A stretch of 63,937 nucleotides of DNA, filler included, from Hausera hauseri (lineage: Eukaryota), in assembly GCA_046269625.1 (NCBI GenBank). It is 13 parts of 13 records of this genome, joined end to end, with 100 filler letters (N's around TTAATTAATTAA, not from the genome) between each part and the next. Parts side by side here need not be neighbours in the genome. Positions count along the whole stretch, not along the records: positions 55,308 to 59,837 come from JBJURY010539564.1; 12 more parts are not named here. One strand, 5' to 3'. The notes below the pieces were generated by a model that saw only the letters and a program-made list of their open reading frames with translations, ran no database searches and was not told the DNA's origin. Below, one piece after another: positions 16,088 to 63,713 of the stretch. Both the position numbers and the translations under genes were made by a program. Position 1 is the first letter of the stretch, and the number at the start of each line of letters is the position of its first letter.

Positions 16088-16140
16088 TTTAAATACAGAA
16101 TACGGATTTCGATTTTTTTGATATCGGATTTTCTATTTAA

Positions 16141-16581
16141 TTGATGGTCTCGTGTTTTGAAGACGTTGCTTTGTTAAGATACAACAAGGGTTTCAAACTT
16201 TTCGATTTAGTTATTGATTATCTTGATCTCAAAATTGATATTTTACCTCATAAATTTATTCTGTACATAACAATTCAAAGCGGCAAAACATTGGACGTGA
16301 AATTCGATTTAAATCGGATTAATTGGTATTGTCTTGTCACACATAGAATTTTAATTGAAAGTGAAACGTGGAAAATTGGTAATTTCAATGTGCATTCATT
16401 TTTGTTGGGATTTGATGACGATGATGACGTACTAACTTTTTTTAAACAAATTGACTATTGCAAAACTGGAAAGTCCAGTCAGTATGAGTCTTATGGTAAC
16501 ATAAATTATTCTCAAGCTAATAATCAAACGACAAATAATGTGCCCTTGACACCTCAAGAAAAGACGTTTTTTGTATTTTGA
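16141..16581 (+). CDS. Unknown intronless ORF (146 aa), possibly a PH-like fold fragment
   Basis: Open frame with alternating beta-like segments ending in a helix (LLGFDDDDDVLTFFKQIDYCK). It lies between the mariner and the Gypsy fragment. Confidence 0.35.
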   Translation: MMVSCFEDVALLRYNKGFKLFDLVIDYLDLKIDILPHKFILYITIQSGKTLDVKFDLNRINWYCLVTHRILIESETWKIGNFNVHSFLLGFDDDDDVLTFFKQIDYCKTGKSSQYESYGNINYSQANNQTTNNVPLTPQEKTFFVF

Positions 16582-16589
16582 ATCTTCAA

Positions 16590-34465: not shown

Positions 34466-34564
34466 GACATATCAGACTAAAGTCCTGCTGTTATCTGTCA
34501 ATTAAATGACAGACAAAGGAAGTTTTAATGTCAGTATGGCTGTCAAATCTGCTAGTGAAAATGT

Positions 34565-37500
34565 ATGCGTTCATGTAAAAATATGGGCCCAAATAATGCG
34601 ATGGTTCCCATTGCACAAAAATGCACAGTGAGGAGGAGATTAAGTGCGCTGACGGATTGTGATAGCACAAATTGTGATCAGATTAAATTGATAAACGGAG
34701 TGAACGATTCTAGTCAAAAGCAGAGTGTTAATAAATTTAGAATTGAGGAAATGACCTCCCTTCAAATGTCAGATGATTCTGTAGAGGCAGATGAAAATAT
34801 AGTAACCAATGAAAATGATCAAAATAAATGCACACAGATGACTCCTGATTCTCAAAAGTGCACAGTTGGAAGAAGACTGAGTGCAACAGTAAATGATAGT
34901 GCAGATCATGAGCAAGCTTCGTGTATAAGTAAAGTGGAAGATTCTGGAAAACTGATGCGGCTTGATGCTGAGGAAGTCGCCCCTCATCCAGTGTCACATG
35001 ACTTCAAGAGTGCAGCTGAATTTCTGGTGGCTGATAAAAATTGTGCAAATGAATTCGTGATTTCTCGACCTCAGATGAGTACAAGTAAAAGATTGAGTGG
35101 GTCAACCAGTGCTGATGGTGCGTTGCGTGAAGAAGTTCATCATGTGAGTAAAGAGAAGAATTCTGTACAAGGAAATATGCTTCATGAACATGATGCTATG
35201 GAAATGACAGCTTATAAAATGTTGAATGTTTCTAAAGATAACAAGGATGATAAACATGATAACAGCGAATGCACACAAAATGTGATAATTCCAAATCCTG
35301 AAATGTGCTCAGTCGGGAGAAGATTGTGCGCATTTACAAATATTGATGGCCCAGGTCAGGTTCAGTGTGAAGTAACAGATTCTGAACAACAGACTAAGAG
35401 TGTTGAATGTGTCACCCATCATCAGATGCTCAATGTTTCCAATCAAATGGAAGCTGATGGAAATGATGAAAGCACACAAAATTTGATTATTCGTCGTTCA
35501 CAGAGAAGCAGAATCTGGAAAAGATTGAGTGCTCTGTCTAATTCTGAACATCAGAACCATGATCAGATTCATTGCATGGATGACTTGNNNNNNNNNNCTA
35601 TTTAAAATGGTTTAATTTTGTTTTCACCTTAACTCAAACATAAAAAAAAACGTTTAGGGCAGTTCAAGCATTGCTGTTTTGTGGATTTTATATTAATTTG
35701 AATTCTCCTTTGTTTTTTTCTGGAAGCTCTCCATCATTAATTTGGTCTTGATAAAGATTCTGTGAGAGCAGAAGCTAATGTTGATGAACAAGAGGCTAAT
35801 TGTTTATCCTTGCATCAAATGTGGAATGTGTCTCAAGATAAAAGTGTGATGGATGTGTCTCAAGACAAAGGTGTGATGGATGTGGATGTATCTCAAGACA
35901 AAGTTGTGATAGATGTACGTGAAGACAAAAAAGTGGTGGCTGCAGAAAATGTAAATCAGTGTTTACAAAATGTGATGAGTTCTGTTGGGCAGACACACAC
36001 TATCGAGAGCTTGAATAAACAGATTAGCTTTGATAAGACACAAAATGATCAAGTTCATTGTGTTAGTGATTCTGTACAGGGAAATGGGTATCAAGTTGAT
36101 AAACCTGAAGCTAAAGAAGCTGCAGTTGAAATTTGTGAAGAAGCAGGTGCAAAAATGGAGCCTGGTGGAAGTGAAACAAATAAATGCATACATGAGATGG
36201 TCTTTAATGCTCAAACTGACTTTGATCACCAAGACAAAGATCAAGTTCAGCTTGTAGTTGAAGTGAAGGATACTCACATAGAAGAAAGTGAAGGTGATAA
36301 ACTTGAATCTAAGAAAGTGTTGCCTCATGAAACGTTGAACATTTCTGGAGATGAAGTTAAAGATACAGAGGCTGATAAAAGCCACTTGACACACAAGATG
36401 GTCTGTAACACACAAACTGACTTTGATCACCAAGACAATGGCCAAGTTCAGCTTGTAGGTGAAGTGAAGGATGCTCAAACTGACTTGGATCACCAAGACA
36501 ATGGCCAAGTTCAGCTTGTAGGTGAAGTGAAGGATGCTCAATCTGACTTGGATCACCAAGACAGTGGCCAAGTTCAGCTTGTAGGTGAAGTGAAGGATGC
36601 TCAAACTGACTTTGATCACCAAGACAATGGCCAAGTTCAGCTTGTAGATGAAGTGAAAAATGTTCAAATAGAAAAAAATGAGGCTGATAACCTTGTATCT
36701 AAGAAAGTGATTCCTCATCAGGTGTTGAATATTTCTGGAGATGAAGCTGAGTGTGATGAAAGTGATACAAGCCACTTGACACACAAGATGGTCTGTAATG
36801 CTCAAACTGAATTTGATCACCAAGACATTGGCCAAGTTCAGCTTGTAAGTGAAATGAAGGATACTCGGATAGAAGAAATCGAGGGTGATAAATTTAAAGC
36901 TATGGAAGCGATCCCTCATAAAATATTGGATACTTCTGAACAAGCAAATATGGAAACTGATGAGAACTATAAAAATCCTTGTATATATATGGTGACCACT
37001 GATGCTCAGACCGACTTCAAACACCAAGACAACGACCAGGTTCATCTTATAAGCAAAATGATGGATGCTCGAGCAGAAGAATATGAGGTTGAGCTTGAAT
37101 CTAAGGAAGTAACTCCTCATAAAATTGTGAATGCTTTTCAAGATACGAAGGCTGATAGAAAAGACACACAAGTAACTAATCTTAATAGTTCGCATGACGA
37201 TCAGAACTGGTATATGAGTGAAGTTAAACATTCTGAACAAGATGAAGATGGTGGTGATAATTTGATCCCTCTTAAGGTGTTGGATTTTTCTAAGGACATG
37301 ATACAACTGGCTGTGAATTTAGATAGTCCAAGTCATGAACAGATTCAGTGTATAAATGAAGCAGAAAATTATCAGTATGGAGAAAATGAATACGAAGTAA
37401 CTAAAGCGACAGTCCCTCAGGAGTTTGATGATTCTGAAGATACAATTTTGTATCCTATCAGTTTTGATAGTCCAGGTCATGAACAAGATCAGTTTACAAA

Positions 37501-38356
37501 TGAAACAGAACAAAATCAGGTTGATGAGCCTGAAATCCAGGAGGCGGATGTGCAACAAATGTTTGAAGGTGTAACACAGAAGAATGTTTGTTTTAATGTG
37601 TTTGCAAGTAATAGGTGCAGCAGTTCGAAAATGCCACATGTGGGGATCACTGTTTCATTCATGGATAATAATGAGGACCGGCCTGGTGCTAGGCATGTGG
37701 AGTGTAAAATGGATCTGTTGGATGTTGCAAAACGAAGCTTGAGTAAAGGTCAGTCTAATAGATCTAATAAAATTGAAGAGTTGAATTTAATGAGGAACAG
37801 AAAGAAGTCTTGCAGTGAGTTACATTCATGCGATTTGGATATGATTCCTCTTACTTGTAGTGCTGACAAAGCAAAACAAAGAATTGAATCATATGATAGT
37901 AGGACAGAATACAAGAACACACAGCATAGTGGAACGGAAAGTTTTGCCAGCATAAATACAGTTTTTTCTACTCCAGAAGGCTACCAGGTAAAGAGTACTG
38001 AAAAATCAGCAATGATGGATGGGGGAGCTATAAATAAAAGATTAAAAGAATCGATTGTGAAGCAAGCATCCAACTTCTCTGAAACATTAGTGACACCTTT
38101 AACAAAATTTAATGAGGAAAGCAAAACTGGCATGTCTCCATTCATGGCCACGAGTAGTGGTGAAAAAATTATTTGCAAAGTCAGCAGACAGAGAGATGAA
38201 AAGAAAAGCAGAGTAAGCAGAAGTTTGTTCAAGTATGTTGGTGCCATGCAAACCTCTGATCTAACGAAAATGTTGACTGGCTGTGTGGTAAACCTAGGTG
38301 AAAAAATTGCTCACAACAGCCTACCTGAAAGTGACGGACATGGGGATAAAGTCAAT
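34565..38356 (+). CDS. Giant acidic, internally repetitive exon (over 1200 aa) of an unidentified gene, split at about 35588-35750
   Basis: ORFs 34565-35587 and about 35753-38356 share repeat motifs (QKCTVGRRLSA, DQVHC, HQMLNVS). Open to the contig end. Confidence 0.75.
36412..36663 (+). repeat. 63-bp coding tandem repeat x4 (QTDFDHQDNGQVQLVGEVKDA) within longer units of about 200 bp
   Basis: Units start near 36413, 36476, 36539 and 36602. Related single copies lie near 36212, 36803 and 37007. Confidence 0.92.
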
Positions 38357-38456
38357 NNNNNNNNNNNNNNNNNNNNNNNNNNNNNNNNNNNNNNNNNNNN
38401 TTAATTAATTAANNNNNNNNNNNNNNNNNNNNNNNNNNNNNNNNNNNNNNNNNNNN

Positions 38457-39225
38457 GACCTATTCAGCAGATTTTCAACAGTTTTGCCGTATAAGCTGTT
38501 GTTCTTAAGCTTACAAAAGTCTTTTACAAAAGGATTATTTGCTGCAGCCTCCTTTGAAGTGTTTAAATCAATTTAATCCTTAAAATTATATCCCTGGTCA
38601 AACTCAGCGGTCCAATGTACCTTTTCAACTACAGCACCTAACTCGATATACAACTGTAAGAGGCGATAGTGAACAACACAGTTGGACTTACGGTCATGTA
38701 CAAGTAGCTGTTGCTTAACTTTTGAACCAGGAGGACATTTATTAATTTGGGGTAGAGGTTGCTGCTCTAACTTTTCATGTTTGTCAACTGGAATGCTTAA
38801 CTCGACTTCAAAGACTAAGCCTCGTTTTTCCCTAACACCGTCAATATAGGGCAATTGTTCAGTTAGACTGTTTAACTTATTTTCATCACATATCCATACT
38901 AAATTCGCAAATGGCAGTGGTTGCAATAAAGCCCGGCCGTATAAATTATTTACATCTANNNNNNNNNNCATTCAACCGCGAATACCCGAATGAAAGAAAT
39001 AGTACATTTCAGGGTCGTGCACAAGTTTAATACGGCACGGACTGGTTTTCAGTGCAGTTGCCCAAGATAAACTGGGAATTGAAACGAAGTTAACGGCTTC
39101 TAATCCATCTTGCATCTTAACCTCCTTTCCAAACCGTTCAAAAACATCGCCTAACAAGTATACGTCGAGCTTCATGTATACCAACATATAATCTAAAAGA
39201 CAGCTACAACTGTATTTTGACTGAA
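38457..39225 (-). mobile_element. Second Polinton-type pPolB fragment (polymerase core), decayed
   Basis: KLDVYLLGDVFERF, SIPSLSWATALK, GIRG, DVNNLYGRAL and KLKNNSLYGKTVENL. Confidence 0.9.
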
Positions 39226-39499
39226 CCAGTTGTGCCTCCCCATAATCGGTATAATATATTATTCGGGATTAACATATCCAACAGATACGATTATGGTAAA
39301 AAATTCCAATGGAAATTTGACAAACTTCTATAGGCGATTGTCTGTGTTTGCCTCTTCAAAACTTTTAGAATATTACTTTGTAAATTCTTTCGATCAAATT
39401 TTTCTTCGAGATCCTTTCTACGCATTGACAAAAAGGGAATTAAAAACACACTACAGTATTCACGATAAGAGTTACAGAAAAGAACTTCAATATGGTATA

Positions 39500-40230
39500 A
39501 ACAGAATTCAAAAGCGAACTTTTCGAAGAATATGGTGACAATATTTTAATTTATAAACGCGAAAAATATGTATTATTTAAACAAAAAAATTGTGCAACAA
39601 TCAATGACATATAAAAGAAAGGGTCAGTAAATCCTGCACAATTAACGAATTTCGAATTTGAACGCAATTTTCCACTTAAAAACCATTTTACTGACGATAA
39701 TATTTATATTTGTATCAATTTCGGTATTACCGGAACGTTTCGAATAATTCTTTAATTCTCCCGGCATTCGGGTGGTTAACATTTGTGAGAAAATAATATT
39801 GGAATTTTTTGTTCGCGATGTAATGAAGTGATTCGTTAATGATTTGAAATTTCAATCGGTAACAACATCACCGTTGAGAAAAAAAGTTCTTTTCAAATTC
39901 TTCATTATGTAAAATACGAATGATTTCGAAAATACTAATTTTTGAGGACGAAAACGAAAATCGATTTTGACATCATCGTCAACGAATTCTTTGTAATTGA
40001 CACGTTTTAAGTAGGCTTTCAATTCATTTTCATGAGTCGATGAGATAAAATGAAATTTCTAAATTTCCCATCCAATAGTTTCAGCATGGTATAATGTAAG
40101 ACGGGGACGTTACCCAGTGGAACAAGACAGCGGGAGATTCGATACAGCATAGGTCGCAGATATGATCCATCGTCGTTAATAACAATAACGGCATTATTAA
40201 CTTTTTCTGCTAATTCACATTTTTTCGGCA
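39500..40230 (-). pseudogene. eIF2B-epsilon-like nucleotidyltransferase-fold N-terminal domain, intronless and decayed
   Basis: AVIVINDDGSYLRPMLYRISRCLVPLGNVPVLHYTM, then across frameshifts SIFEIIRILH and FLNGDVVTD*NFKSLTNHF. The pattern fits eIF2B epsilon/gamma. Confidence 0.65.
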
Positions 40231-40295
40231 TATTTGTGAACGGATCAGTGGAATTAGTCTGCTTCGTCAATGTTTCGTTACAAATCAATTTTTAT

Positions 40296-40790
40296 TTACA
40301 GTACTGACTTGTTCGATTTTTTTTGAGGCGAAAAGAAAAATTGAGATTGAGGATAGATATTGGCGGGAATCATGAATAAATTGGAAATAGGCATCAAAGA
40401 ATTCAATATAGGCACCATACCATTTGTCGATCCAAATGGTTCGGACATTTTAGTATTAAAATCCGATTTTGGAGTGATTACCTCTGTGTATGAAGTATTT
40501 GTTGATGTGGATGAACCACCAGAATTGGAATGTTCTCTTATAACTAAATTAACCGTATTGTGATCCATTGACAGAATATCCGATTACCGAAGATTTACAA
40601 TTAAGGAAATAAATTTTTTAAACGCGCCTTCAGCAAACCCTAAATTGTTAAGTCTTTTTTCACTTATGGAAAAGAAATATCCAGAAGTAATGTTGTTTAG
40701 ATAGGAATGACATTTGTGAAGTCTGACATGTTTTAACCAGTCAAGGAAATTTCCGATATGACATTGTGTTTGCTTGCAGAGTTTGAAGTT
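40296..40790 (-). pseudogene. Smaug/SAMD4/Vts1-type RNA-binding SAM domain fragment
   Basis: DWLKHVRLHKCHSYL...SEKRLNNLGFAEGAFKKFISLIVNL matches WLKSLRLHKY...TKGARHKI. It continues in frame past a TAA into 40296-40568. Confidence 0.72.
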
Positions 40791-40799
40791 GGGGAAAAA

Positions 40800-43700
40800 A
40801 TTGTCGGATTTTTGTGTAAGTGTTGCGTTGTGCAAAGACGAGGTAGAAAGGAGAAGGAGAAGGTGAAGGAGGAAGAGAGATTGTTGGTGACGGATGGTTG
40901 GAGGTGTTCAAGAGAGTGTTAGAAGACAATGGACTGACAGAAGGTGTAGTGGCGGATGGAGGAGGAGAGACGAAAATTGAAGTAGAAATTGGAATTGTGT
41001 TAGGCGAAAGAGTAGCAGTAGAAAATGAAACAGGGGTAGTAGTAGAGATAGGAATAGAAGTAGAAGGTGTAGAAAATGATAAAGCAGAACTATGATCAGA
41101 AGGAGGAGGTGAAACTGGTGTAGCAACGGATAGAGGAACAGCAGGAGGTGTATGAATGAGAAAAGAGGTTGACGTGTCGATTGGTGAAATGTTGTCGACG
41201 AAGAAGGCGGGCTTTAAGTTGGTAATACGCTCTATAAGTTCTTTGCCGTCTTTAGAAATAATAGCGTTTTGCGAATGTAGTTGTACCAGATTATAGTGTC
41301 CCAGATACCGCAATTGGAAACCGCACGGCGTTTGATTTTTTAGCCATACGAATTTTGCCGAATACATGTCTTCGGGTAAATATGTTTTGTTCTTGTAAAG
41401 TAACCTGCAGAACGAATATTTACTGACCGTAACGAAATGATTTTGCGCCGCCCGTATCGTTTCATCTGTAGGAGTGTCATCTAGGACAGTTAGTTCGAAT
41501 AGTGATCATACAAGATCTTTGAATAAGGCTTCAGTAGGTGAGCATCCCGTAGAAGTAGACGGAGTGTTCTGCCAGCCGAGCAGAACAAACGGAAGAAAAT
41601 TTGTCCAACTAGTGTTGGACTCTGCCAGAATTCTTAGTGACGTTTTCAATGTTCGGTGGAAGCGTTCTAGGAGGCCGTTCGATTGGGGATGATAAGGCGT
41701 ACTATGTATGTGATGGATCCCCAATCGCTTAGCAAGGGATTTGTACATTTTGGATTCAAACTGTGGACCTTGGTCCGTGATGATGAAACGAGGTGATCCA
41801 AACCTGCTAATCCATGTACGAATAAAAACTTCAGCTATAGTGTCGGTATTTGTGCTCCCCATAGGGATGGCTTCTTGCCATCGCGAGGAACAATCAATCA
41901 TGGTGAGGATGAATTGATGACCGTCGTCTGGAGGAAGAGGGCCGACGATGTTGATATGCTCGGATTCGAAACGCGATGTGCAGGGAAAGTGGAACAGTGG
42001 TGGCTTTAAATGCTTAGTTGTTTTGGAGTTTTTGCAAGCCATACACTCCTTAACCCATGCCTGCACATTGGAACGCATTGACGGCCAAATTACTTGTCCG
42101 TGGAGTAAACTAAAAGTGGCTTTAGCACCGTGGTGGTGTAGCGAATGTACACTGTTAAACGCTTGCCCTTGCAAAGGTGGTGCAAGAATTATTATGGAAT
42201 GACCTGATTTGGAAGTGTCTAAATCCACGCCGTCAACGATTGTGCAAGACTTGAAAGAATTAAGCATGTCTTGAGGTGGCTGGTTTTGTTGAAATTGAGC
42301 TGGCGTAAAAATCAGTGAAAAATTAATCGAACTAACCGACCTAGATAAAAAATCGGCAACTAAATTATTAACCCCGTTAATGTATTTTATGTCAAAGTTA
42401 AATGTCGATAAGTATGATATCTATCGTTCTTGGCGTGTGGAAGGATGTTTCATAGTCATGATGTTAAGTAAGTAGTTTGTGATCGGTCTGTATAGTAAAA
42501 TGGCGAGCGACAAGTAGGTGGGAGAAATGCTTTAAAGAAAGAACGATAGCCAATGATTCTTGATCGTACGTTGAATATCTAATTTCAGGGGATGTTAGCT
42601 TACGAGAGAAAAATTCCAGCGGTTGATTTTCGCCTTTGTGGAATTGGTGGAGTACACCACCTACTGCAGTGGTTGAAGCGTCTGTAGTAAGGATGATTTC
42701 CGCATCAGGCTTGGGGAAAGCAAGAATGTCGACGGTCTTGATTCCTTCGCGTAGCTTATCAAACTTGTCACCCAATTCAGGTTTCTACTGGATTGGCTGA
42801 TGTTTTTTACCGCCGCTTAAGTGTGAAAATTGTGCTGTCAATTCAGAGCAATATGGTACATATTTATGTACAAAGTATAGTGTACCAAGGAAGCTGCGCA
42901 TTTCCGTGGTCGTACGTGGTAACTGGATATTCTTAAGTGCTTCAACTCGGTCTGGTGGAGGAGAGTGGCCGTCGGGTGAAATAACATGGCCTAAAAAGTT
43001 GATGCACTTTTTGAAGAAATAGAATTTGTCGAAATTGAGTTGGAGATTATGGTGGTTAAGACTTTGGAATACTGCGCTAAGGTGTTCCTCGTGTTGTTTG
43101 GCCGAAGAGGAAACGATCAGAATATCAGCAATTTAATAATACGCAAAAGGAAAATCTGAGAGAATTGAGTCAATATGTTGCTGAAAAGTCTGTGCGGCAT
43201 TTCTCAAACCGAATGGCATAAACAGGTACTAGTAGAGGCCAAAATGGGTAGTGACAGCAGTTTTTTCTATGTCTTCGGTGCCACCGGTATTTGGTGATAT
43301 GCTTTGCTAAATCAATGGTCGAATAGATTGTGATTGAATTAAGACGATGCAAGATATCCTTGATGAGTGGCAGGGGGTACGCATCCATAATTGTTAAGTT
43401 GTTCAACGGTCGGTAATCACCGCATGGTCTAAAAGTTCCCTCCTTTTTTGTACGACATGTAAAGGTGATGACCAAGGAGATTTGGAATGGTGTACAATGC
43501 CGGAGCGTTCTAGTTCAAGAAATTCGGCTTCTACGGCTTGACTTTGACGATGTAACAGTGGTCGTACCTTTTGGCATATCGGTCGATGATGCTGTGTAAT
43601 TATGTGATGTACAGTGCTGTTTGCAGGAGTAAAAGTACGATCTTTTTTGAGTACTCGTGGATATGATGTGTTGACGAATTGCTGAAAAGTTGTAGACAAC

Positions 43701-43843
43701 TGTGAGAGATTCGGTGATGATGGTGAAGCGGCTTGAGTAGTAGTGGATGCAATGTGTAAATTGTTTGGTGATGTGCAGTCAAGTGGTATTTGGTTTAAGA
43801 TGGTTGAATTGAAAATGGTGTTGGATGAAATATTTTCGTCGAA
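40800..43843 (-). mobile_element. Ty3/Gypsy pol (RT, RNase H, integrase, S/P/T-rich tail), decayed; same family as 16590-19424
   Basis: SKSPWSSPLHVV, RPCGDYRPLN, MPFGLRNAAQTFQ, LTTDASTTAVGGVL, ITDQGPQFES and PYHPQSNGLLERFHR. Shares YSAKFVWLKNQ with the other copy. Confidence 0.95.
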
Positions 43844-43943: not shown

Positions 43944-44330
43944 GACGACTCTATGAATATAGCCAAAATCGAAATTTCGATAATAAGATGGATAAGAATC
44001 CCCTTTATGGGAACAAAGGCTTCGACAATAATCAGAATTCAAATAACGTGAACGCGAAGCCAAACTACAACGCGAACCAAGATGGTTATAAGGGCAATAA
44101 CAAAAATTTTAAATATGAGGCCGGAAACAGATACAATGATTTTAGAAACAATGAAAACAAATATGGCGGAAGTAGTCGGATAGAATTCTTAAATCAGGGC
44201 TATTCTACGAACGACTGCCGCTCAAAATCACTCATAAATGAGGACAGTCGACAAAGGATTGGTAGAAACGGGAATCTAATATGCTATACATGCGGCAAGG
44301 AAGGCCACATAGCACGATAATGCCCAAATC
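43944..44330 (+). pseudogene. gag: Gag C-terminus with CCHC zinc knuckle
   Basis: An N/G/Y-rich tract followed by CYTCGKEGHIAR*C (CX2CX4HX4C with a stop just before the last Cys). Confidence 0.88.
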
Positions 44331-44399: not shown

Positions 44400-47300
44400 A
44401 ATCCTGATGGCTTGAAAGGAATATGAGGATAACGTACGAATATTAGAAGTATATCATGGACTAGTTGAACCTCGAACAAAATATGAGCACTTAATAGCGC
44501 CAGATAACAGTAATGTGGTTCGCAAGAAGAACGTGCCTGTAAAGCCCGTAGCAACAGAAGAGGCAAGCAAGGTGGAAGTAGCAGAGACATCGCCCAGCGT
44601 AGACTTGGACGCTGAATCTGAAAATCTGGCAAAAGGACATCAAGATGTGGCTGATGAAATCGAGAGTGAATATATAGCTCCATTAGTACTTAAAATAACG
44701 AAAAATAGAGGTCATAGTCCATCAATTAAAAGGAAGCCAAAAGGTCGATCAAGATCGCCATTAAAAAGAAATGCTCACATAGAGGACATCCCGAACTTAG
44801 ACACTCCAGATGTGGAGCTTGCTGAAGTTCCAGGTATTCCAAGTACAAGCGTAACCGTAGGAGACGCAAACAGTGAGATAAACGAGATATGTTTACTGCC
44901 AGATAATGAAGGCGAAACTGATTGTATGGAGCCAATTAAAAAGCTAGACGGAAAAGTGTGGAGGATCAGAAAGTCCTGGAAAAATGCAGATAAATTAAAA
45001 GAAATTAGGATGGCGCCAACAGATACGGAGACGATAAGTCACAACCTGAAAGAATTAAGGCATATAAAAACTCAAGTAGATGTGTCTGGAAAAGAACAGC
45101 ATTTCGCCGAAAGAATTTATAAAGAATTTAAACGATACCTTCAAGAAGACGTTAGCAGGGAGAAAGAAGCAGAGGAAGTGAATGAAATTGTGGAGAAAAC
45201 GATTAAAAAATGAAAAACAAAACTATATTCATGGGTAAAAAGCGGAATTGACTTCACCGCCACATGGAATAATCAAGAAATAGAAATTAAGACTAAAGTG
45301 GCGACCGCCCAAGGATTACTAAATGACGCTAGAAACGGATCCAAAACAGAAGCTAATAAAACGGAACTTAGAGAAATTAATGGTAGAAATAGAGAGTGCA
45401 GTAATCTATCACCTCAAAAATAAACCAATATACGAATTGGATGAAAACGAATTTTTAATACTAGGCATAGAACCGGTAGACATTCCTCTCATAATGGAAA
45501 TGCGTAAGATCGCGTACAGCGCACCCAAAGAATATGCGGACATAGGAATTCACATAGCCTTGCAAGATAAAAGGCGCTCCGAAATCTACAAACGTAGGAA
45601 TAAAATAACGTATGCAGAGAACCAAGAAGGACAAAACATAACGAAAACATGTACTTTAGAACTGGTCGAATACAAGAAGTAAGTTAACTACGTTAGAGGA
45701 GTAATGGACTATATTAAAGGTCCGGTCGATAAATTGAACGACGCCTGCGAACGATTAGAAAACGTAATAAACGCCAAACCAGTGATAGATAACCAACTCA
45801 AATAATGGATTGAACTGTTAGACAGATTAGTGAGTCTAAGGAAATATCGTATAAGGAAGTATTTGGAATGTGAACCAATATTAAAACAACAGTTAAAGGA
45901 AATACTACGTAACTTATATGCTTACAAAATAGAGGCAAACCTTTGGGTTGAATTTAACGCATTACCGAGACTAAGATTCATGAATAAAAATCAGTAAATA
46001 AAACTCACAGAAGAATTGTATACCATGAACGAAGAAATGGAATTATCGGCGAAACAGAAAAAGATCTCATCATTATCGATGAGACTAAAGGGTGTCCGTC
46101 TAGAAGGTGTACGACAATTGGTAACAAGGCCCATAGATGAAATATCCATATGTGATATATCGACCTTGGATATTTGCCCAAATCATCGGACCGCGTTAGA
46201 AGAAGTATTAAAATATCTACATCGTCCTTTTGAGTGGGCATCAGATACCGACTAGAATTTTCACGTTGAATTAATAGAAATAACCAAAGATCATCGCCTC
46301 ACACCAGATGACGCTAAATTCGTAAAGAGACTGATTGAAGAAATAGATCCAGAGTCGAAGACTCTAAAAGAAATGCGCGAAATAATATCACCACTATCGA
46401 CAATGGCAGAAATAGATAACGACAAGACACGACAACTAGTAACTCAAGTTAAAGATATAGAAGAATTGCGACTTCGCACAAAGCAAACAACTACGAAGCT
46501 AGATGAATTAGGCAAAGAATTGGAGACTTATAAAAATAAATATAAGATCACGCAATCAGAGTTGACGAATAAAAGACAATTCGTACAAAGAAGGTTAACG
46601 GATGTAACGACAAAATTAACAAAATATGAAAGAAAAGGACTGTTTCCTACAGACGAACTAGGTCCAACATTAAAAACGATACAATTGACATGTGGGATCG
46701 GAGCAGAATTTAGGACCAACTTAATGAAAGAGGTACAGTCAAGATTAAATGAGATCCGCAAAAATGTACGAAGTACGTCCACGATATTACTTGATTATGG
46801 ATTACCAGACGTCGCAGACGACATGGGATTGAATGCTTATTTGGAAGATATGTACAACCAAAACCCAAAAACACCCATCCAACTTTAACAAAAGGATATT
46901 TTTTTAACAGACCGATGATTTAATATGGAGATGCTCTTGGATCCCACACGGGCCGAGAGAGAATTAATTGAGCAGATTAACGTCAACATGATGGAGAGCA
47001 AACTGAGTCAGTGGATCCCTACACTAACCAACTTTCGAGCGAAAATACCATTTATAGCTCAGTACCCAAACTGTTGATAAAGAAATACGCTGATTTCTTG
47101 AAATCTAAACCCGAAACAACCATTAAGGTTAAAATATCAGCTGAATGGATGGAAGAGAAATTGAATGTACAACGATAACATTGGGTAGAGAAGTAAAACA
47201 ATGAATAGTACAAAATAGTGGGAAAGGCGAAGTAAATTATCGGTTATATTTCCGAGGTAAGATACTGGACGAACCTGAGCTACTAATAAACACTGGAATT

Positions 47301-48056
47301 ATTCTAGAGGAATCTAATCGAATAATGGCTATAATTACTGACGAACAGACAAAGGACGAGGCTGTAAAGAAAGTGAGAGGCGAACATTACGCAGGACGCA
47401 TTATGGGAATCCGAGACCCTGCCATGTGTTTTGACTACCTCCAAAGTGAGGAAGATAAGGAACAATATGATAAGAATCTAGTACAGATTAGCGAAGCAAT
47501 AACAACTGCGCCGGAACAGAAACGACCAGTTAGAAGGCCGAGGAAAATAAGAGATGATATTGACCAAAGTGCAGCCCCGATACGAGAACTAAGGCAACTA
47601 TCCATGCCCGCGATTAACTCCGATAGCGAAGAATTAAACAAGTTGCTGAGAAACATTATAAAAATAGTGAACTATTCGGGACCAAGAAACGAGATGTTGG
47701 GTGAAAAAGAAAAGGTAATATACGACGCAGCAAGGATAATCAGAACATTTCGGTTCAAAATAAACAAAAGCAACTTACCTGATGAAGTTTTAAACTAGAA
47801 AATTATGACATAGAATACTAAGGAAGAACTAAGGAAAGTAATATTGTACTTGGCGATAAAAACAAATCCCTTAAAGGAAAATGAATTCAGTAGAACCATT
47901 GGATTAATCAGAAAAGCTGCTATGAAAAAAAAGAGAGAGATAAATTGGTCAAAGCTATTTGATGACGAAGATGGAAACAGGGCGACCACTCGAATTGAAA
48001 ATGTTGTAAGAAATTTAATACCAACTGACTCAGCGCGAGGTATTGAATCAAATTGG
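44400..48056 (+). pseudogene. Large unknown coding region (about 1200 codons) between gag and env, with a coiled-coil segment
   Basis: Chain of same-strand ORFs (44515, 45323, 46016, 46373, 47325, 47844) broken by stops and frameshifts. K/E-rich heptads at about 46420-46630. No PR, RT or IN motifs. Confidence 0.75.
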
Positions 48057-49892
48057 ATGATTAAACTAACAACACTTATGATGTTAATAAGACAACTCGG
48101 TGCAATCACGGTATATGACTATGATAAGTTTAAAATAGGTCAGACATATTTCCTGATGGATCTGGAGTTGTGTGAGGATGCCAGACTCCACAAGTTAGTA
48201 ACCATTGAGAAAAAGTACTTCTTGTACCAGCAACGCGAACTGATCGCAATAGATGGGATAGAGTGTATGTTACGACGATCGCGAAGCATTTTCCACTGTG
48301 CAAATATGCACGGACATTTGTCAGTCGTAAAACCAACGACACCGCTAATTCCTATGGATTTAGATCGACAACAATGCAAACAAGCCAAGGAAACAGGAAG
48401 ATTGAGATGGTATGGGATGGAATTAGAAGCCCAACCAGGAAAGATAATTCGAGTGTACAAAGTAGCAATTGGGAAACTAGACATGCACACCGAATACTGT
48501 AAAGGTGGTAAATACTATACGGGAAAAGGTAGAGAAGAAGGAATAGTAGTGGTCGATTTCTATGAGACAGAGATGAGTAACCAAAAGATGATGTTCAATA
48601 GTGTCACAAAAACATATACCAAAAATCAGAAGTGTCACATCCAAGATGGTGCCTGTACCTTCAGGGACTCGATAGTCATTTGGACTCCACCACCTATGAA
48701 CGATTGTAACTTTATTAAAACAAAAGAATTAAACTTTAACGAAACCATAGGAAAAAGATATGTGGATAGAAGCGACAACAATGCTAGGACCAGAAAAGAC
48801 GTGGCTGTGCAATCTACCTCCACAATATTAATATCCGAGGACCGTAGATTAAAGTTCATTAAGAAGCAAATGCTTTCAGATGTAATGTAATAATGTACTT
48901 TACCAATTACAAAGCATTCTTCGTAGTAGAAGCAGCAATAAGTATTTCTGCTTTGAAAATACAAGATGTGAGAATAGAAGATTATTTAAAGAATAGAGAT
49001 GATTTTTTCTATTACAAAGCACAAATCGCACTAGCAGAATTATATCACAAGATGATCGCAAATGATTGTAAAGTGGATATGAAAATTATGAGAACCAAAC
49101 TAGCCTTAATCTATGCGAATCCAGAACCTAGCATCGCCCGTAATCCCAATGAAAGAAGGCATTTTTGGAAGAGTCACCGGAGAAGTCCTGTTGACCTACG
49201 AATTCGAAAAACGAGATGTATCCCTAAACGTGAAGGAAAAACGTTGTATCCAAGAATTGCCAATCATATATCAAAACGTACTCCCATTGGCTATGCCACT
49301 TACAAGAGTTTTGCTAGGAAACTCAACACAGCCAACAGTTTTGAAAAAATGTAAAGCAGGTTTAGGGGAACCTGTATTTAAGAGAAGTGAGACAGATTGG
49401 GTAAGTCTGCCAAATGGAGGAATAATAGCTACTCCTGGCAAATTAACTGGAACATATCTACTAAGGGAAATAACAGACGATAAGTTCGCTGACACGGCGA
49501 GCAAAGGGATTTACAGACCAAAAGAGATTGAAGCTTTCCGACAATTCCTAGCCGTCCATCGACAGCATACACACGAGCTGAATAGAGCCATGTTAACGGT
49601 GATGGATGACACTCGTTATCAAGCAAAATGGGAATCCCTACTTGGCGTTAATCATTATCAAAGAGTTACTACAAAGATATTACATAAAATTTCGGAAAGA
49701 TTTCTAATTTTCGGACAAGCTATATCAGGATTTTTAGCCATCAACTTTTTGGTACAACGCGTAAAGACTATAATTCAATCTATCATAAATGGCTATGAAA
49801 TATTTACTCTAACCGGATTTTCGTGCAAAATTCTGACCGCAATCATAACACCGTTCGGAAAATTTCTAAAGGCCTACGAAGAGAACAAATGA
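48057..49892 (+). pseudogene. env: Env-like fusion glycoprotein, chuvirus/Monjiviricetes (class III)-like
   Basis: Signal-like MIKLTTLMMLIRQLGA followed by ITVYD; ECMLRRSRSIFHCANMHGHLSVV; CHIQDGAC...IWTPP; GRVTGEV; CIQELPI; PLTRVL; SKGIYRPKEI; C-terminal hydrophobic helices FLIFGQAISGFLAINFL. The Cys and motif order recalls chuviral G. Confidence 0.85.
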
Positions 49893-50432
49893 AAAAGCGA
49901 CGTGGATAGACACGTTCGTTATTATAATCGGAAACGAAAGAGAAAACCTATATTTTTTATAGGAGAAAGAAATACAAAATTTCGAAAATACGATTCAGAT
50001 GATGATGAGCCTAAGAGAGGAGACGCAGCCTCCAAGGTAAGCAGTCGTAAGACGCTTAGGCCGCCTTTACTAATGCTGCCCCCTTCGGCACCGCAATACG
50101 AAGACAGCGATAAGAGATCTATTAACTCCTATAGTTCGGAAATTTATTGAAAGCCTTTCAATTATGAAGATCCATATGAAGTGACAAAGCAGTATGACAT
50201 GTTACGGAAAATGTAACGAGCCAGCGAAAAATCCGAATTATGCCGCCAGCCGGACGATGATCGCAAGGTAATATACTCCCCAAGGATCCCACGGAACATA
50301 TAAACCAAATCATTAATTTGGGATAATCCACGCATGCAATCCTTCCATAGCCAAGACAACCGAGAACCGCTAATCAATACGCCGGATCGAGACAACGAAA
50401 ACAGTGTAAATAACGGATTGTATCCCATTGAG
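49893..50432 (+). pseudogene. Post-env hydrophilic linker continuing in the env frame to the contig end
   Basis: Same frame as 49113-49892 with sporadic stops. It ends NNGLYPIE, like HGGMYPMY just before the protease in the 55308-59837 element. No PPT or LTR is visible. Confidence 0.6.
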
Positions 50433-55207: not shown

Positions 55208-55313
55208 NNNNNNNNNNNNNNNNNNNNNNNNNNNNNNNNNNNNNNNNNNNNTTAATTAATTAANNNNNNNNNNNNNNNNNNNNNNNNNNNNNNNNNNNNN
55301 NNNNNNNTTTTAT

Positions 55314-55745
55314 TTATTTCGAGCTTATTAGGAACTCGTATGTATTTATTAAATTTAGTGTATAAACTGTGATAGTGATCTCCTTTTTTATGAGCGTAAG
55401 GTATACCACATGAGTCTCAGAGTTCTCTAATAGACATTGCGTTTCGTTTGTCGATAGATGAAGTATGCAATCATACTGTCGCTCGTTAGGGTTCCTCTTA
55501 TAGTCGTTCAACGGGATTATTTGTATTCCTATCATATATTCAACAGGTATTCGTTTCGTAGCATACCAAACTGCACTTTTCTGACCTCTCATGGAATATG
55601 TTATGTGATATTTTAAGCTTTTCAACAGTAGATCCTCGTTTATAGCCGTTGCATGTCGTATCTTGGCTTGTTCGATTTCTTGGTTCGTTAATTGACTCAG
55701 GACTTGTGGCATTAGCATTAGTATTATCAGGAGGAAGTACTTCAT
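55314..55745 (-). CDS. Signal-peptide-bearing domain in frame after the integrase
   Basis: MKYFLLIILMLMPQVLS-QLT... begins at codon 83 of ORF 55314-55991, whose start contains the integrase GPY/F motif (YKGPYEV...VHVNRCK). Confidence 0.65.
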   Translation of the reverse strand: MKYFLLIILMLMPQVLSQLTNQEIEQAKIRHATAINEDLLLKSLKYHITYSMRGQKSAVWYATKRIPVEYMIGIQIIPLNDYKRNPNERQYDCILHLSTNETQCLLENSETHVVYLTLIKKEITITVYTLNLINTYEFLISSK

Positions 55746-55829
55746 TTCATATGATTTATAATTTGGCTCTTTTGTGATTGTTTTATCATTAAAACTTCTT
55801 ACTACATATTGCCTAAGTTTACTTTCTTT

Positions 55830-58800
55830 GGCTGCTGTCTTACATCTATTAACATGAACTTTAAATATGGTGTTATTCTTTTTTAGGTAGAGATTAGGGA
55901 AGTCTACTTTTTCTACTTCGTATGGTCCTTTGTATGACCTATCTAGCTTGGACGTTTTTCCTTTCTTATTTAATAGTATATGCAACATCATCTTATCTCA
56001 TACTTTGATCTTAGGTTGTTTTGTCTTCATCATAATACCTTTTTATAGGTCATTTTAGTCTTTTTGGTTGTACTTTACTATTTTATAGGCTAATTGTAAA
56101 CGTTCTTGCATTAATAGTTTATATTCTTCTACCTCCATTAGGTGAGACGTGAGATTCACGTTAAAATCCAAATCAATAGGTAGTCTGGCAACTCGTAGAT
56201 ACATTAGATAAAACAGTGTTTCCTTTGTAGCTTCGTGTACGGATGTTCGATTTACAAATACTCAAGCGTTGATGTATTCGGCCCAGTCATCCTGTCGGGA
56301 GCTAACAACTGTTTGTAGCTTATATTTTAAATCGCCAATGTATCTTTCAACCATTCCATTGTTTTCTGGGTGTCCTGGTGTTGAAGGTAGCTTCAAGATC
56401 CGCATCATATCATATACCGCTTGCATTACATTGCCAGTTAAGTTAGACGCTTGGTCCGTTAATAAGATTCTTGGGGCTCCGTAGTTGAATATTATGTTTT
56501 CTACGAATTTCTCGGCGATTGTGTCTGCCTTCTCGAACGGAGCTGGTGGATTATACCATACTTTGAGGGGAGCTTTGAATTTTGATCCCGTGTTTTTACG
56601 AGTGGCGCAAATTTTACAACTATCACATCATTCTTGTACGTCCTTTACTAAGGTGGGCCAAAAATATTTCCTTTTTAATTTGGTTGTCGTTTTTCTTGCT
56701 GACTGGTGATCGCCCAATAGTCCGTCATGGTATTGTGTTAACAGAACGGTTCTATTTTTCTCCGGTATTACTAAAGTTGGTCCATTTTGATAAATATAGT
56801 ACAAAAATCCATCCTTTTCTTCATACGTTTCACTGAATCGAGCCAAATGTCCAGCTAACTTTTTATTTTATGGTAACATTTTGTTTTGTATATAATTTCT
56901 AATCGCTTTTATCTCTGTATCTTCTTGTTGATTGTTCTATTTTTTCTATGGACCCATCCATGCTCCACACTGCGGCGACTACTTCTCTTCTTGTCTTTGG
57001 TGCTTCAGGCATTCTTGACAAATAATCTGCATTCACATTCCGTGTTCCCGGATTAAAATGAAAATTTAACGTATAAGGTTGTAACTTAAGAGCCCATCGT
57101 AACAATCGGCTATTTGGATTTTCGTGTTGCTTCAACCATTGTAAAAGTCGATGATCTGTATATACCAATAGTGGTTTGTTCTCACTGATATATGGTGAGA
57201 ATAATTCCAGTGCTAATATTACGGCTAATTCTTTTTCAATAACTACGTAGTTCCTTTAATGTTTATTTAATTTCCTAGAGGCATAAGCTACTGGATGTTC
57301 TTTCCCATCTTCGCCTTATTGGGAAAGGACTGCTTCTACTCCGTAGTCACCTGCGTCAGTTGCCAGTATAAATGGTTGTCATATCTGGGTAAATTAAGAT
57401 CGGGGCGTTCAGTAGTCTCCCTTTTAATTCTTCAAAAGCTTTTTGGCAGTTACATGTCCATATCACTTTTTCCAAATCTTCACGTAGTAGTTCGTATAAG
57501 GGTTTGGCTATCTTGCTAAAATCTTTTATGAATCCGGTAATAATTTGCCAGTCCTAAGAATCGACGTAATTCTTGGACTGTAGTTGGTTTTGGGAAATCT
57601 TTAATCTTTCCTAACAGTTTATCTTGTGGTTTCACACCGTACCTATCGATTCGATGTCCAAGGAAATCGACTTCCGTTCGGGCGAATGGACATTTCTTTG
57701 GGTTTATCCTTAGACCCATTATTTCACATCTATCAAAGAGGTCTTGCAAATCTTTCAAATGTTGAAAATCCGATGATGCTATTATTACGTTATCAATATA
57801 GACCATGGCATGAGGTGCGTCTAAAAGTAGTAACTCAGTTCCTCTTTGAAAAGTTGGTGGTCCATTCTTTAATCCAAACGGCATTCTCTTAAATTCCCAC
57901 AATTCTTCGCCTATCGAAAAGGCTGTTTTGGATTTATCTTCCCTTACTTCCTCTTGCCAGTATCCTTTTTGTAAGTCTATGGTTGTGAATATCGTTGATC
58001 CATGCAATTTGTCTAATATTTCATCGATTCTTGGTAGCGGGTAGGTATCCGTCTCGGTTATTTCATTCAAAGCTCTGTAATCTATGCAGAATCTCATGGC
58101 TCCGTCTTTCTTGACCATTACTACGGGTGCTGTCCATGGAGAGCAACTTGATCTAATTATCTTATTTTCTCTCATTTCTTCTATGATTTTCTGAGCTTCC
58201 TGCTTTTTATCATAGGCAAGACGATATAGTCGTATTTTATCGGTTTATCTTGCCCTTCCTTCAACTTAATAGAATGTTGTATGACCTTCATCGTTCCTAG
58301 ATCGTAATCATTTTAAGCAAATCGTTCGTTATTCGTCTCTAATAATTGAATTAACATTCTTCTCTCATCCTTATTTAGTATTTTGCAGTCTCCTAATTTT
58401 TCATCCCAATTAATATTAGTGACTTTCTTGTTTCCCTTACCTTTATTTGTTTCTTTTTTCAATTTCTCCTTCATCATCTTTTCTATCTTACCTACATCTG
58501 ATATCACTGAATTAGGTTCTTCTTTTAGTGTTTCTTCGATCTCCGTTACTTGTCCCAATCTTGTATTTTTTCTCAATCGTTTTTCCTTCTTTCCAGTGTT
58601 ACAAATTCGTAGATGAATCTTTCCATTTCTCACTTTATCTACGTGTGGAGCGATAATGATATCGTATTTCTCCATTGTTCGCGAGAATGGTTCGAAGTGT
58701 ATATACGTGGTAAGTAGTTTACTTTTTATTCGGCCAGGCACTATTATTTCGGAACATGGAGGGATTGCGACATCCTCTGTTAATGAAATTGATCATTCGT

Positions 58801-59170
58801 ATTGATTTTTACTAAAGGTCTTTAACTGACCCGTCTTCATGTCGATATATGTATTTTCCAATTGATTTAATATATCGCATCCAATTAGTATATCGTTCGT
58901 GAAATTCTTAGCCACTCTAATAGTGTGATTTATTGTTTGATTGCAGATTTTAATTTTCGCGTCTAGGACCATCTTCATTTCCTCTTACATGCCAAATGCT
59001 TCCACATTAATTAATGTTGTGGTAGGTTTTCTTAGCTTCTTTCTTAATTCTTTGGGTAACTGGTCTTCTCCCATAATTGTGGTTGTAGACGCTGTATCCA
59101 ACAAGGCCATTAGTGGATATCCGTTTACTTCTATATCTATCTCTGGCCTTAGAGGTGATTGTGGCTCATT
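55830..59170 (-). mobile_element. pol: Ty3/Gypsy pol: protease, RT, RNase H, integrase; decayed
   Basis: VNGYPLMALLDTAS, ILIGCDIL; SPWTAPVVMVKKDGAMRFCIDYRALN, MPFGLKNGP, VYIDN; LATDA, VYTDH, RLLRWALKLQ; YHDGLLGDH, LTDQASNFTG, GHPENNGMVER, GPY. PR-RT-RH-IN order. Confidence 0.96.
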
Positions 59171-59600
59171 TTTTGTCGCCGTCTTGTACGTGGGCTCACG
59201 GTTGTATGGTGTGAAAATTTCGTCATAATTTCGTTTTATTTGTAGTACTTGATACATAGGATACATCCCTCCATGTCTCAAATATTGAGAAGCTGATGGA
59301 TTCGTCATTACTTGCTCGTTACAGACTCGTCCAAGGTATTCGTCTGCTAGGTCTAATAGCGGTAAGTCCGTTACTAATTGCTGTTTATTTTAGTTTTCAT
59401 GGTTTTAATGAAAGACTTCTCCATCTCCTTATATATTTACCGCCTTTTTGCTTGACATCGGGATCATCATCATTATCGTTTTTTATCGTTTATATTACTA
59501 TACGGGAAATTCCTTTCATTTCTTTCTTTAAACATTTTCTTTTTCCATTGAGCATCGTGTTTCGCTAGAAAACAACTAGCTACAGCCGGTATTACTGCTA

Positions 59601-59837
59601 TCAAAATCTTCCAAGACAACCTACTGCTGCGTGTATTCCATAAGCCTTACTAAGAGCGGTGAATATCGCACTAATAATAAAATATATCGCGAGAAATCCT
59701 GAGGCTGCTTGGCAAAAATACAAGAACTTTCCCCACATCTTTTCCATGATAATCCGTGTAACTTTCTTTAAATAATCTTTTCCCATCAGGTTTTCCCATT
59801 GTGGTGAGCCTTCGCCGTCCCACATTACTCTTCTTGT
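59601..59837 (-). pseudogene. env: C-terminal membrane anchor of a second env copy, directly upstream of the protease
   Basis: QWENLMGKDYLKKVTRIIMEKMWGKFLYFCQAASGFLAIYFI aligns with KWESLLGVNHYQRVTTKILHKISERFLIFGQAISGFLAINFL at about 49626-49750. Confidence 0.85.
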
Positions 59838-61661: not shown

Positions 61662-62753
61662 TATTTGGTGTGTCCAATAAGTAGTGAGACTCTTATAGAA
61701 AGGAGTAAGCGAACACATTGGGACTTGGTAATTACAGTAAGCAAGTCATGTAGACCTTATTTCTCAAAATAATTTCCATGCACATCGACACTTTTCCCAG
61801 GGAACGGCGAGTCTGTTGAATGTGTTTTTGAACAATTCAGACGGTTTCTCCTCCAAGCATCTTACCACAGCGGCTGTCAAATCCTCCTTAATGGCAATCT
61901 GACGACCCCACAAGAAAAATCTGAGGGAGCCAAATCCGAACTGTAGGGGGATGGTGGAGTAAATTCAGCCCACAACGCTCAATTGTGGCCATGGAAGCGC
62001 TGCTGGTGTGGATGGGAGTGTTATCGTATAAATAATATAGATCACACACTCTACTCTTGCATCCCACCTTCCTCGCTTGTTGCGCGAGATTGTAGTAATA
62101 AGAGCTGTTGATGAACACGCCAGATTTTCCGCATTTTCCGTGGAGATTTTTTCTGGTATTTTCCACTCTTGCGATTCTCTTTTATATTTCGGAACATACA
62201 ATGATAATGGTGTCTCGTCTATGGTCATGATGTTCTCCATGAAATTGTCTCCAACATTGAGCGTGATTTTCAGATTCTCCAAGCAGCACTGCAAACGGCA
62301 ATATTGCATTTCGGCAGTTAGGAACCGCAGTACAAAACAAGAACACAATTTTCGAATGCCATTTGCAGTGAGAAGATTGTATAGAGTGCCTTTGCTCATA
62401 TTTAGACAAATGGTGAGCTCTCTGGTCGTTGTTCTTGTCTCATTCTGCAAGGTTGTCTTCGGCTTCTCTGTTACTTTTTCATCAATCTCACAAAAGCCTT
62501 CCAGTTTTTTCATCATCCACCATGGATGTTCTACTACTCTGAAAGAACCTATTCTCTATTTTTGCTGTGGTACTGCACACTTTCCGGTGCCATTTTTAAA
62601 TATGCGCAAAAATTGACCAAACAAAAGGTGGTTTATTAAAACAAATGACATATCCATAGACTATATATTCTGAAGTTTAAATGTTATTCATCACATTGTT
62701 TTAGTATAATTATTTCTATAAGAGTTTCACTGCTTATTGGGCACACCACATGT
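61662..62753 (-). mobile_element. Mariner-family element with both TIRs, internally deleted
   Basis: TIRs ggtgtgtccaataagtagtgagactcttatagaaa and tttctataagagtttcactgcttattgggcacacc. Transposase motifs MTIDETPLSLYVP, LYDNTPIHTS and LLHHPP. Confidence 0.92.
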
Positions 62754-62795: not shown

Positions 62796-63713
62796 GTCCG
62801 AGCGATTTGAACGATGCTGGTTTTTTCTCAGGTTTGTCGTTATGCGTTCCGATAAAAGTATTATAATAGATAGACTCGAGTCCGTGTGGCAGTGAAATCA
62901 CTTTAAAGAAACTAGAGGATTTACAGGCCCAGTTTTGTCAAATGCAGAAAGACATTACATCATTGGTACAAATGCATATGTTCAATAAGTCTATTAGTAA
63001 TGGAAACTGTTCGTCGACGTTCATGCCAATCATGACGTCGTCACCCGCATCAGTTAAGTCCGTTCCCTACTGCACAGAAGTCCCACCATTCTTTCATAAT
63101 CAGTTTCTTCCGCCACCACCACCTCCATGTTTACCTCCCCCACCTCCGCCACCTCCTGAAGTCATAAATTTCAGGAAAGGCGCTAAGAAAGAGGTAAAAC
63201 ATCCTCATCCAATTAGCCTCGGATAAATAGTATTTAGGTCTTGAAAACGCTGCAAAAAGGAATGCCCGATATGAGTGAAGTTCTCAAGGGTATATCATCT
63301 GTTAAACTTCGACCGATTAAACGTGATGATGATGAAAATAAATCTCTTGAGAAGTTGAGTTTCGTCTTCTAGTTACTTCTGAAAATCGATTTCTAGAGCC
63401 GATGCTTTCAAATATCGTTTGCGGCCAATCACACGTCAGGAATCGATTATTGCTGACGCTCTTCGAGAACGATTCAAATCGTTTCGAATGTACAGAGAAG
63501 ATCGTGATGAATCAATTTCATCAGTTGAATGGGATGATTGTGGTTCAAACACGAGTCAAAATGTACGTTTCGGATGGAACTGAATCTGTTTATCATGTTT
63601 TCATCCTCTTTCAGGCGTACAGACATAACTTACGAAAGGTAGATCGATCTCAGTTGCCGTTCATTGTTTCCAAAGATTTCGATATAACCACCACCACGAA
63701 CAACAGTCAGTAA
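62796..63713 (+). CDS. MTFR1: Mitochondrial fission regulator (MTFR1/MTFR2, FAM54) family gene, 3' exons
   Basis: Exons 62796-62831, 62874-63193, 63238-63353, 63397-63562 and 63615-63713 (GT-AG introns of 42-52 nt) splice to an open frame. It contains TLKKLEDLQAQFCQMQKDITSLV, a poly-Pro tract, MPDMSEVLKGISSVKLRPIKR and IIADALRERF, in the MTFR1 motif order. Confidence 0.82.

Follow-up and report, generated by a model that had tools for sequence, protein, structure and literature searches.

Whether a Ty3/gypsy retroelement can carry its envelope gene (env) ahead of its polymerase region (pol) is the question raised by a locus of Hausera hauseri (assembly GCA_046269625.1). The stretch of DNA analyzed here, hereafter called the window, comprises 63,937 nucleotides and is composed of 13 short contigs with N spacers between them. 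Two of these, each single and free of gaps, are central: contig B (55308-59837, minus strand) and contig A (43944-50432, plus strand). Both are decayed, broken copies, and very probably they represent two families of an envelope-first Ty3/gypsy long terminal repeat (LTR) retroelement of the kind described as Burro and as GAG-ENV-POL errantiviruses.

Env and pol on two broken contigs

Contig B carries the following features, given in coding direction.

59554-59837 (-): C-terminal membrane-anchor part of an env of the chuvirus glycoprotein (G)/gB type, truncated by the contig start, with a frame change near 59620 and a hydrophobic segment
59147-59553 (-): env tail and pre-protease linker, with a hydrophobic-Y-P motif at 59266-59258
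58856-59146 (-): retropepsin (aspartic protease) with one in-frame stop (RVP, E 1.1e-8, X-read)
58547-58789 (-): weak dUTPase-like stretch between protease and reverse transcriptase (PF00692, E 0.17, below cut-off)
57519-58244 (-): reverse transcriptase (RT) of Ty3/gypsy type (RVT_1, E 3.7e-25)
57004-57532 (-): connection and RNase H, spread over two stop-containing frames (PF17917, E 2e-32; PF17919, E 1.2e-19)
55773-56837 (-): integrase (zinc finger, core and C-terminal domain) with five stops (PF17921, E 2.1e-17)

The domain order env anchor, linker, protease, RT, RNase H and integrase on contig B is genuine, and the position of env upstream of pol agrees with the original prediction, which had been made from the sequence alone. 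The env part matches PF24664 (Monjiviricetes_fusion) at 59604-59837 with E 1.2e-7, above the curated Pfam cut-off, and env homology continues beyond the frame change to 59554 (tblastn with residues 900-993 of P0008, a related protein treated below). Env thus lies within 2 kb upstream of pol, separated from the protease by a linker of about 400 bp. Neither an LTR nor a polypurine tract nor a primer-site-like motif is apparent between env and protease, the latter two having been sought with a short motif list, and no long direct or inverted repeat is present within contig A or contig B. An LTR or nested insertion within 59170-59600 had been named beforehand as decisive against the proposed order; the repeat and motif checks show none. 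The distance from anchor to protease amounts to 204 codons in contig B as compared to 140-217 in nine of ten relatives and about 365 in the tenth, P0004.

The assignment of pol to the gypsy type was likewise upheld. The best solved relatives of the contig B RT are the Ty3 RT (4OL8, E 4.7e-53) and the Ty3-G Gag-Pol (E 5e-53), which rank far above caulimovirus-type and foamy RT, while RNase H and integrase match Ty3/gypsy-type Pfam families. The RT, with YIDN as its catalytic motif in this copy, is 55-56% identical to that of P0006, P0008, P0034 and P0050, and in a tree of seven rows, none of them a family reference, contig B groups on a long branch with P0006, P0008 and P0034. The integrase core is internally deleted, rve matching profile positions 47-102 only, and comparison with P0008 reveals 11 in-frame stops and four frame changes in pol. 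Related contigs from two public runs (13,623 in one and 1,871 in the other) reach all 30 bins of contig B in either run, linker and post-integrase part included, so the whole stretch belongs to a repeat family. Both contigs end inside the element, and LTR ends and element size therefore lie outside the sequence. The A content of the coding strand is 39.6% and 39.8% in contigs A and B versus 26-35% in four other contigs of the window.

Contig A probably represents the 5' portion of such an element.

44282-44317 (+): gag zinc knuckle, followed by a stop (zf-CCHC, E 7.2e-5; 27% identity to the gag of P0007)
44416-46888 (+): first part of the X region, with broken frames, acidic and then coiled-coil-like (weak coiled-coil families only)
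46999-47330 (+): helical and ubiquitin-like module of the X region, split by a frame change (profile of six relatives)
48048-49892 (+): chuvirus-G/gB-type env in three frames (PF24664, E 2.3e-15, 4.6e-3 and 4.5e-21; profile positions 9-599 of 653)
49893-50432 (+): env tail and linker with PSAP at 50082-50093 and LYP at 50418-50426; the contig stops before any protease

As had been foreseen, the same env family is thus found downstream of a gag zinc knuckle, with no pol domain among the nine open reading frames (ORFs) scanned against Pfam; PF24664 exceeds its cut-off on both contigs, in line with the proposed chuvirus-G-like nature of env. The accessory region of contig A spans about 3.7 kb. 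Its first part yielded no named domain and no blastp match to the relatives, and neither MATH nor BIR nor ankyrin domains were listed for the broken ORFs of the contig at E up to 1. The profile of the ubiquitin-like module matches contig A (X-read) with E 3.2e-10 and 26.0 bits, a score reached by 0 of 1000 shuffles, with the break point of the frame-changed read chosen after both halves had been seen. The contig A env is only 21-33% identical to any match and stays unplaced in the env tree. Its best matches are retroelement polyproteins, with Wenzhou crab virus 2 G ranking 32nd of 33. A word-index search of this env against longer proteins gave nothing, and a profile search of solved structures with env returned no glycoprotein, the link to gB being that of the published survey (PMC13524379).

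The two contigs had been regarded as diverged members of one family. Membership in one lineage stands, while the assignment to one family was rejected: contigs A and B are best considered separate families of one lineage because they share no blastn match and because their envs, 41% identical over 59 residues, are no closer to each other than to outside relatives (contig B 45% to P0014 and 40% to P0004; contig A 40% to P0008). The proposed resemblance between the end of contig A (NNGLYPIE) and the linker of contig B (HGGMYPMY) lacks tblastx support; it is nevertheless plausible in view of the Y-P motif that precedes the protease in eight of ten relatives.

Relatives, precedents and alternative explanations

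A full-library search with the contig A env returned 33 proteins, of which 17, chosen for length, were scanned; P0034, P0050 and the loci L001 and L002 were added. In all seven relatives that contain both domains (P0006, P0008, P0010, P0021, P0034, P0050 and L002), env precedes RT in one reading frame. A single ORF of 2693 residues in L002 comprises the capsid-like gag with its knuckle, followed by env and all of pol (protease, RT, RNase H, integrase). P0008 unites in one protein a CCHC knuckle at its start (read from the sequence), a ubiquitin-like module, env and pol; its env matches that of contig A, and its RT is 55% identical to that of contig B. The order gag-X-env-protease-RT-RNase H-integrase, which had been pieced together from two contigs, is thus seen in one piece. 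Scans for further loci among genome contigs (P0008 and A2 as queries) and viral contigs (A2) gave none, and L003 was one weak, irrelevant RT match.

Six relatives carry the helical and ubiquitin-like module between gag and env. That of L001 matches Pfam ubiquitin with E 7e-5, and nine of its ten weak PDB matches are ubiquitin-like domains. In five relatives (L001, P0001, P0002, P0004 and P0023) a Bcl-2-like domain directly precedes env; Bcl-xL and Bcl-2 account for all of its best 60 PDB sequence matches (E from 1e-4), and a model of it with a predicted local distance difference test (pLDDT) score of 75.7 gave Bcl-2 folds as its first 31 structural matches (best Z 8.5, root-mean-square deviation (rmsd) 3.2, 113 aligned residues). 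In eight of ten relatives the protease is preceded, at a distance of 27-86 residues, by a hydrophobic-Y-P motif (shuffle mean 1.0; 0 of 2000 shuffles), which also occurs in the linker of contig B and at the very end of contig A; the motif was picked post hoc, after it had been seen. Y-P and PSAP motifs resemble retroviral late domains.

The relatives are metagenome proteins, and P0008 (HBK71150.1) was deposited as a protein of a Flavobacteriaceae metagenome-assembled genome. This bacterial label is probably due to bin contamination, the protein being an animal-type retroelement polyprotein. Several relatives whose polyproteins are env-first, namely P0050 (4844 residues), P0006, P0034, P0007 and P0004, contain multiple aspartic-protease domains as well as C2H2 fingers and ankyrin repeats; P0050 has up to seven aspartic-protease stretches and, between env and RT, an extra signal-peptide-like segment. 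In L001 a lone TGA (3058-3060) stands between the gag-accessory part and env, which share one frame, while P0004 is open at the matching place; the codon may reflect read-through control or damage. Positions 1-500 of L002 comprise an LTR-like stretch, AATAAA and then, near 497, a TGG-starting primer-site-like sequence; there is no second LTR on that contig.

The gene order had been thought to lack precedent, which did not hold. Env-before-pol elements are already described for flatworms, nematodes and bryozoans, since both Burro and the GAG-ENV-POL errantiviruses have this order. Burro/GYPSM1, a giant gypsy-like element of planarians, carries env in frame between gag and pol, and its described succession of gag knuckle, ubiquitin/SUMO-like accessory region, mononegavirus-type env, protease, dUTPase-like domain and RT-RNase H-integrase resembles that reported here, including the position of the weak dUTPase-like stretch of contig B (Arkhipova and Yushenova, 2019; PMC6431247). 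Among the relatives, P0050 has ankyrin repeats and a frame of 4844 residues. Differences concern the MATH, BIR and ankyrin domains of Burro, none of which was found in contig A, and its Bcl-2-like domain before env, which five relatives share and which was not detected in contig A. GAG-ENV-POL Ty3/gypsy errantiviruses with a gB-type env occur in Nematoda, Bryozoa and Platyhelminthes, where they are not monophyletic, and chuvirus-like glycoproteins are found beside gypsy pol (Chary and Hayashi, eLife 2026; PMC13524379). The survey table of that study comprises 36 elements from nematodes, 9 from flatworms and 10 from bryozoans (72, 18 and 20 occurrences, two per row), and for the nematode elements the study refers to Sacco et al. 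(2022). The likeness to these errantiviruses consists in the Ty3/gypsy pol, the chuvirus/gB-type env and its location before pol; a difference is that the published copies are intact and often LTR-flanked, whereas contigs A and B are fragments with stops (PMC13524379).

Several observations weigh against the envelope-first interpretation. No piece of DNA from this organism carries gag, env and pol together; in the window the three are combined only across two families, and among the related contigs listed from the two public runs none spans the whole of contig B. The relatives were found as proteins, and an env encoded after pol in a separate ORF could not have appeared as a fusion. The likeness to Burro and the published errantiviruses is one of description. 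A Bcl-2-like domain, sought in contig A in four ways, gave no significant score (46 of 300 shuffles). Contig B harbors only 234 bp of env (Pfam span), frame changes occur between env and protease, and depth dips locally near 59180, where loose ends are also present. These latter points would suit a chance adjacency, in which the 3' end of a gag-pol-env element came to lie beside pol sequence of another element or in a nested arrangement with it. We consider this very improbable: the 400-bp gap contains no LTR, polypurine tract or primer site, env, linker spacing and pol are collinear with single proteins, the linker holds the Y-P motif of the relatives, and every bin is covered in both runs. 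As the single-ORF relatives show the full order, with all seven env- and RT-bearing proteins env-first in one frame and L002 encoding the whole order, a nested insertion is unneeded and was rejected.

Contig A might alternatively be a non-autonomous gag-X-env element devoid of pol, or a chuvirus-type glycoprotein inserted into a gag remnant, instead of the 5' half of an element resembling contig B. The contig runs 239 codons past the env anchor without a protease, beyond the spacing of nine relatives and short of that of P0004. The low identity of its env to any match and the lack of a settled place in the env tree also leave room for this explanation. It is nonetheless unlikely, given that the ubiquitin-like module of env-first relatives resides just upstream of env, that LYP and PSAP occur as in the relatives' linkers, and that retroelement polyproteins, not stand-alone viral G proteins, are the closest env matches. 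Capture of a chuvirus glycoprotein by a BEL/Pao element was also taken into account, because mosquito BEL/Pao elements carry the same glycoprotein family, PF24664 (Dezordi et al., 2020, as reported in PMC13524379). Such an element is a different retroelement family from contig B with its Ty3/gypsy pol: the RT is nearest to Ty3 RT among solved structures, RNase H and integrase match PF17917, PF17919 and PF17921, and neither a protease nor a gag family of BEL/Pao type appeared among the matches listed for the contig B fragments and the long relatives. The BEL/Pao explanation was accordingly rejected and retains next to no probability.

A signal-peptide-like module behind the integrase

Beyond the integrase, contig B contains one further feature.

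55314-55745 (-): post-integrase module in frame with the integrase, consisting of a signal-peptide-like stretch and about 125 residues; it stops six bases before the contig end

A signal-peptide-like stretch behind the integrase is present in all six relatives whose frame passes the integrase end, P0021 and P0051, which end earlier, having been left out of the count. The hydrophobic peak of the contig B module is 2.59 and is reached by 34 of 1000 shuffles; for five relatives, 2-26 of 1000 shuffles match the peak of the tail, while P0050 was assessed separately. A second hydrophobic anchor is found in the modules of P0008, P0034, P0050 and L002 and, weakly, P0006. The modules of four relatives share the motif C-x2-L-x-P-x-T-x-Y, whose four occurrences in 46,513 residues all fall there and which we presume to be akin to fibronectin III. 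The two ordinary, env-less gypsy tails of the window, used as controls, lack a signal-peptide-like segment. They belong to a family represented at 14879-19424 (+) and 38457-43843 (-), with 72% identity over 1.27 kb and a Ser/Pro/Thr-rich post-integrase tail.

Because the signal-peptide module occurs in the window and in all six relatives, four or five of them anchored, the in-frame protein behind the integrase suggests a second surface protein. That it is such a protein throughout the lineage, acting as an attachment or host-modulating partner of the fusogen and not as incidental cargo, appears possible rather than probable. The signal-peptide-like segments, the second anchors, the motif restricted to these modules and the control tails speak in its favor. 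On the other side, sequence comparison did not connect the module of contig B with those of the relatives, the score being equalled by 541 of 1000 shuffles; this module also terminates without a second anchor, and its shuffle support is modest. The modules of L002 and P0010 are unlike the rest, the controls are only two, no fold or function was found, and the six cases are at most five independent ones because P0006 and P0034 are near relatives. A word-index search among proteins of 124-398 residues, fused forms lying outside its range, found no homologue of the contig B frame, and the ESM Atlas held no usable match for the contig B or L002 module. AlphaFold modeled the contig B module alone with a pLDDT of 47; a match of this model to a nematode BEL/Pao envelope protein (Z 6.2, rmsd 3.2, 103 aligned residues) is within chance for a model of such quality and was not used.

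Elements of nematode metaviruses, published by Sacco et al. (2022) in J Gen Virol, reportedly combine a captured RNA-virus glycoprotein with env before pol, are said to be restricted to Chromadorea, and reportedly contain extra ORFs for a small hypothetical protein or a helicase. The small ORF may correspond to the post-integrase module. In the open literature we found no description of a signal-peptide protein downstream of the integrase, the search having covered neither Repbase, GyDB and the eLife figures nor subscription journals. The terms "Burro," "late domain," "fibronectin" and "downstream of integrase" are absent from the main text of the errantivirus survey (PMC13524379), and the available description of Burro mentions no post-integrase signal-peptide module (PMC6431247). 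The parts not found in print in this search are the possible second surface protein behind the integrase and the Y-P motif before the protease.

In the relatives, hydrophobic segments before env, after env and after the integrase are observed, as are the domains, their order and the single frame. Working elements would accordingly produce one long chain in which gag is followed by an accessory region with a ubiquitin-like and often a Bcl-2-like part, then by env and pol (protease, RT, RNase H, integrase) and finally by a second signal-peptide module. Following the topology of membrane proteins, an internal signal peptide would direct the env ectodomain into the endoplasmic reticulum, and the env anchor would return the chain to the cytosol, such that pol would arise as a cytoplasmic tail attached to env, from which the pol-encoded protease would release it. 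Within this tail, the Y-P and PSAP motifs could act in the manner of late domains and recruit budding machinery, and the signal peptide behind the integrase would start a second exported or membrane protein. For the lineage, cell-to-cell spread appears plausible; the copies on contigs A and B are no longer able to act on their own.

Neighboring sequences and biological meaning

With one exception, the contigs of the window are AT-rich and repeat-laden. The region 34559-38404 (+) contains long acidic frames and a tandem repeat of 63 bp, and the other strand carries an open frame at 35963-37318. A fragment at 62870-63226 (+) resembles the mitochondrial fission regulator family (PF05308, E 3.4e-5) and adjoins a mariner-like remnant recognized by eye at 61965-62555. 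A contig of higher GC content carries, at 24874-28365 (+), an intact frame of 1163 residues for a long interspersed nuclear element (LINE) with endonuclease and RT (Pfam RVT_1 and Exo_endo_phos), which we take to resemble a teleost L2-type element. This teleost-like LINE suggests that the assembly contains DNA of two organisms; that the retroelements belong to an invertebrate associated with fish would be no more than a guess.

As regards gene order, the finding that env precedes pol enlarges a described group by a further example, a broken one, and in itself changes little. The contigs do join two bodies of literature, as the eLife survey in its main text never names Burro (PMC13524379). Of wider consequence, though doubtful at present, would be a view of the env-first Ty3/gypsy elements as a lineage with two surface proteins: a class III fusogen encoded before pol and, behind the integrase, a signal-peptide membrane protein in a swappable attachment or host-modulating position, presumably fibronectin-III-like in four relatives and different in others, with pol as an env tail furnished with late-domain motifs. 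The window would perhaps extend this kind of element to a new, possibly fish-associated host group. If true, the post-integrase surface protein would imply a retroelement that derives separate fusion and attachment proteins from one polyprotein, a parallel to herpesviruses and to certain enveloped RNA viruses, and would offer a handle on how gB-type errantiviruses enter cells.

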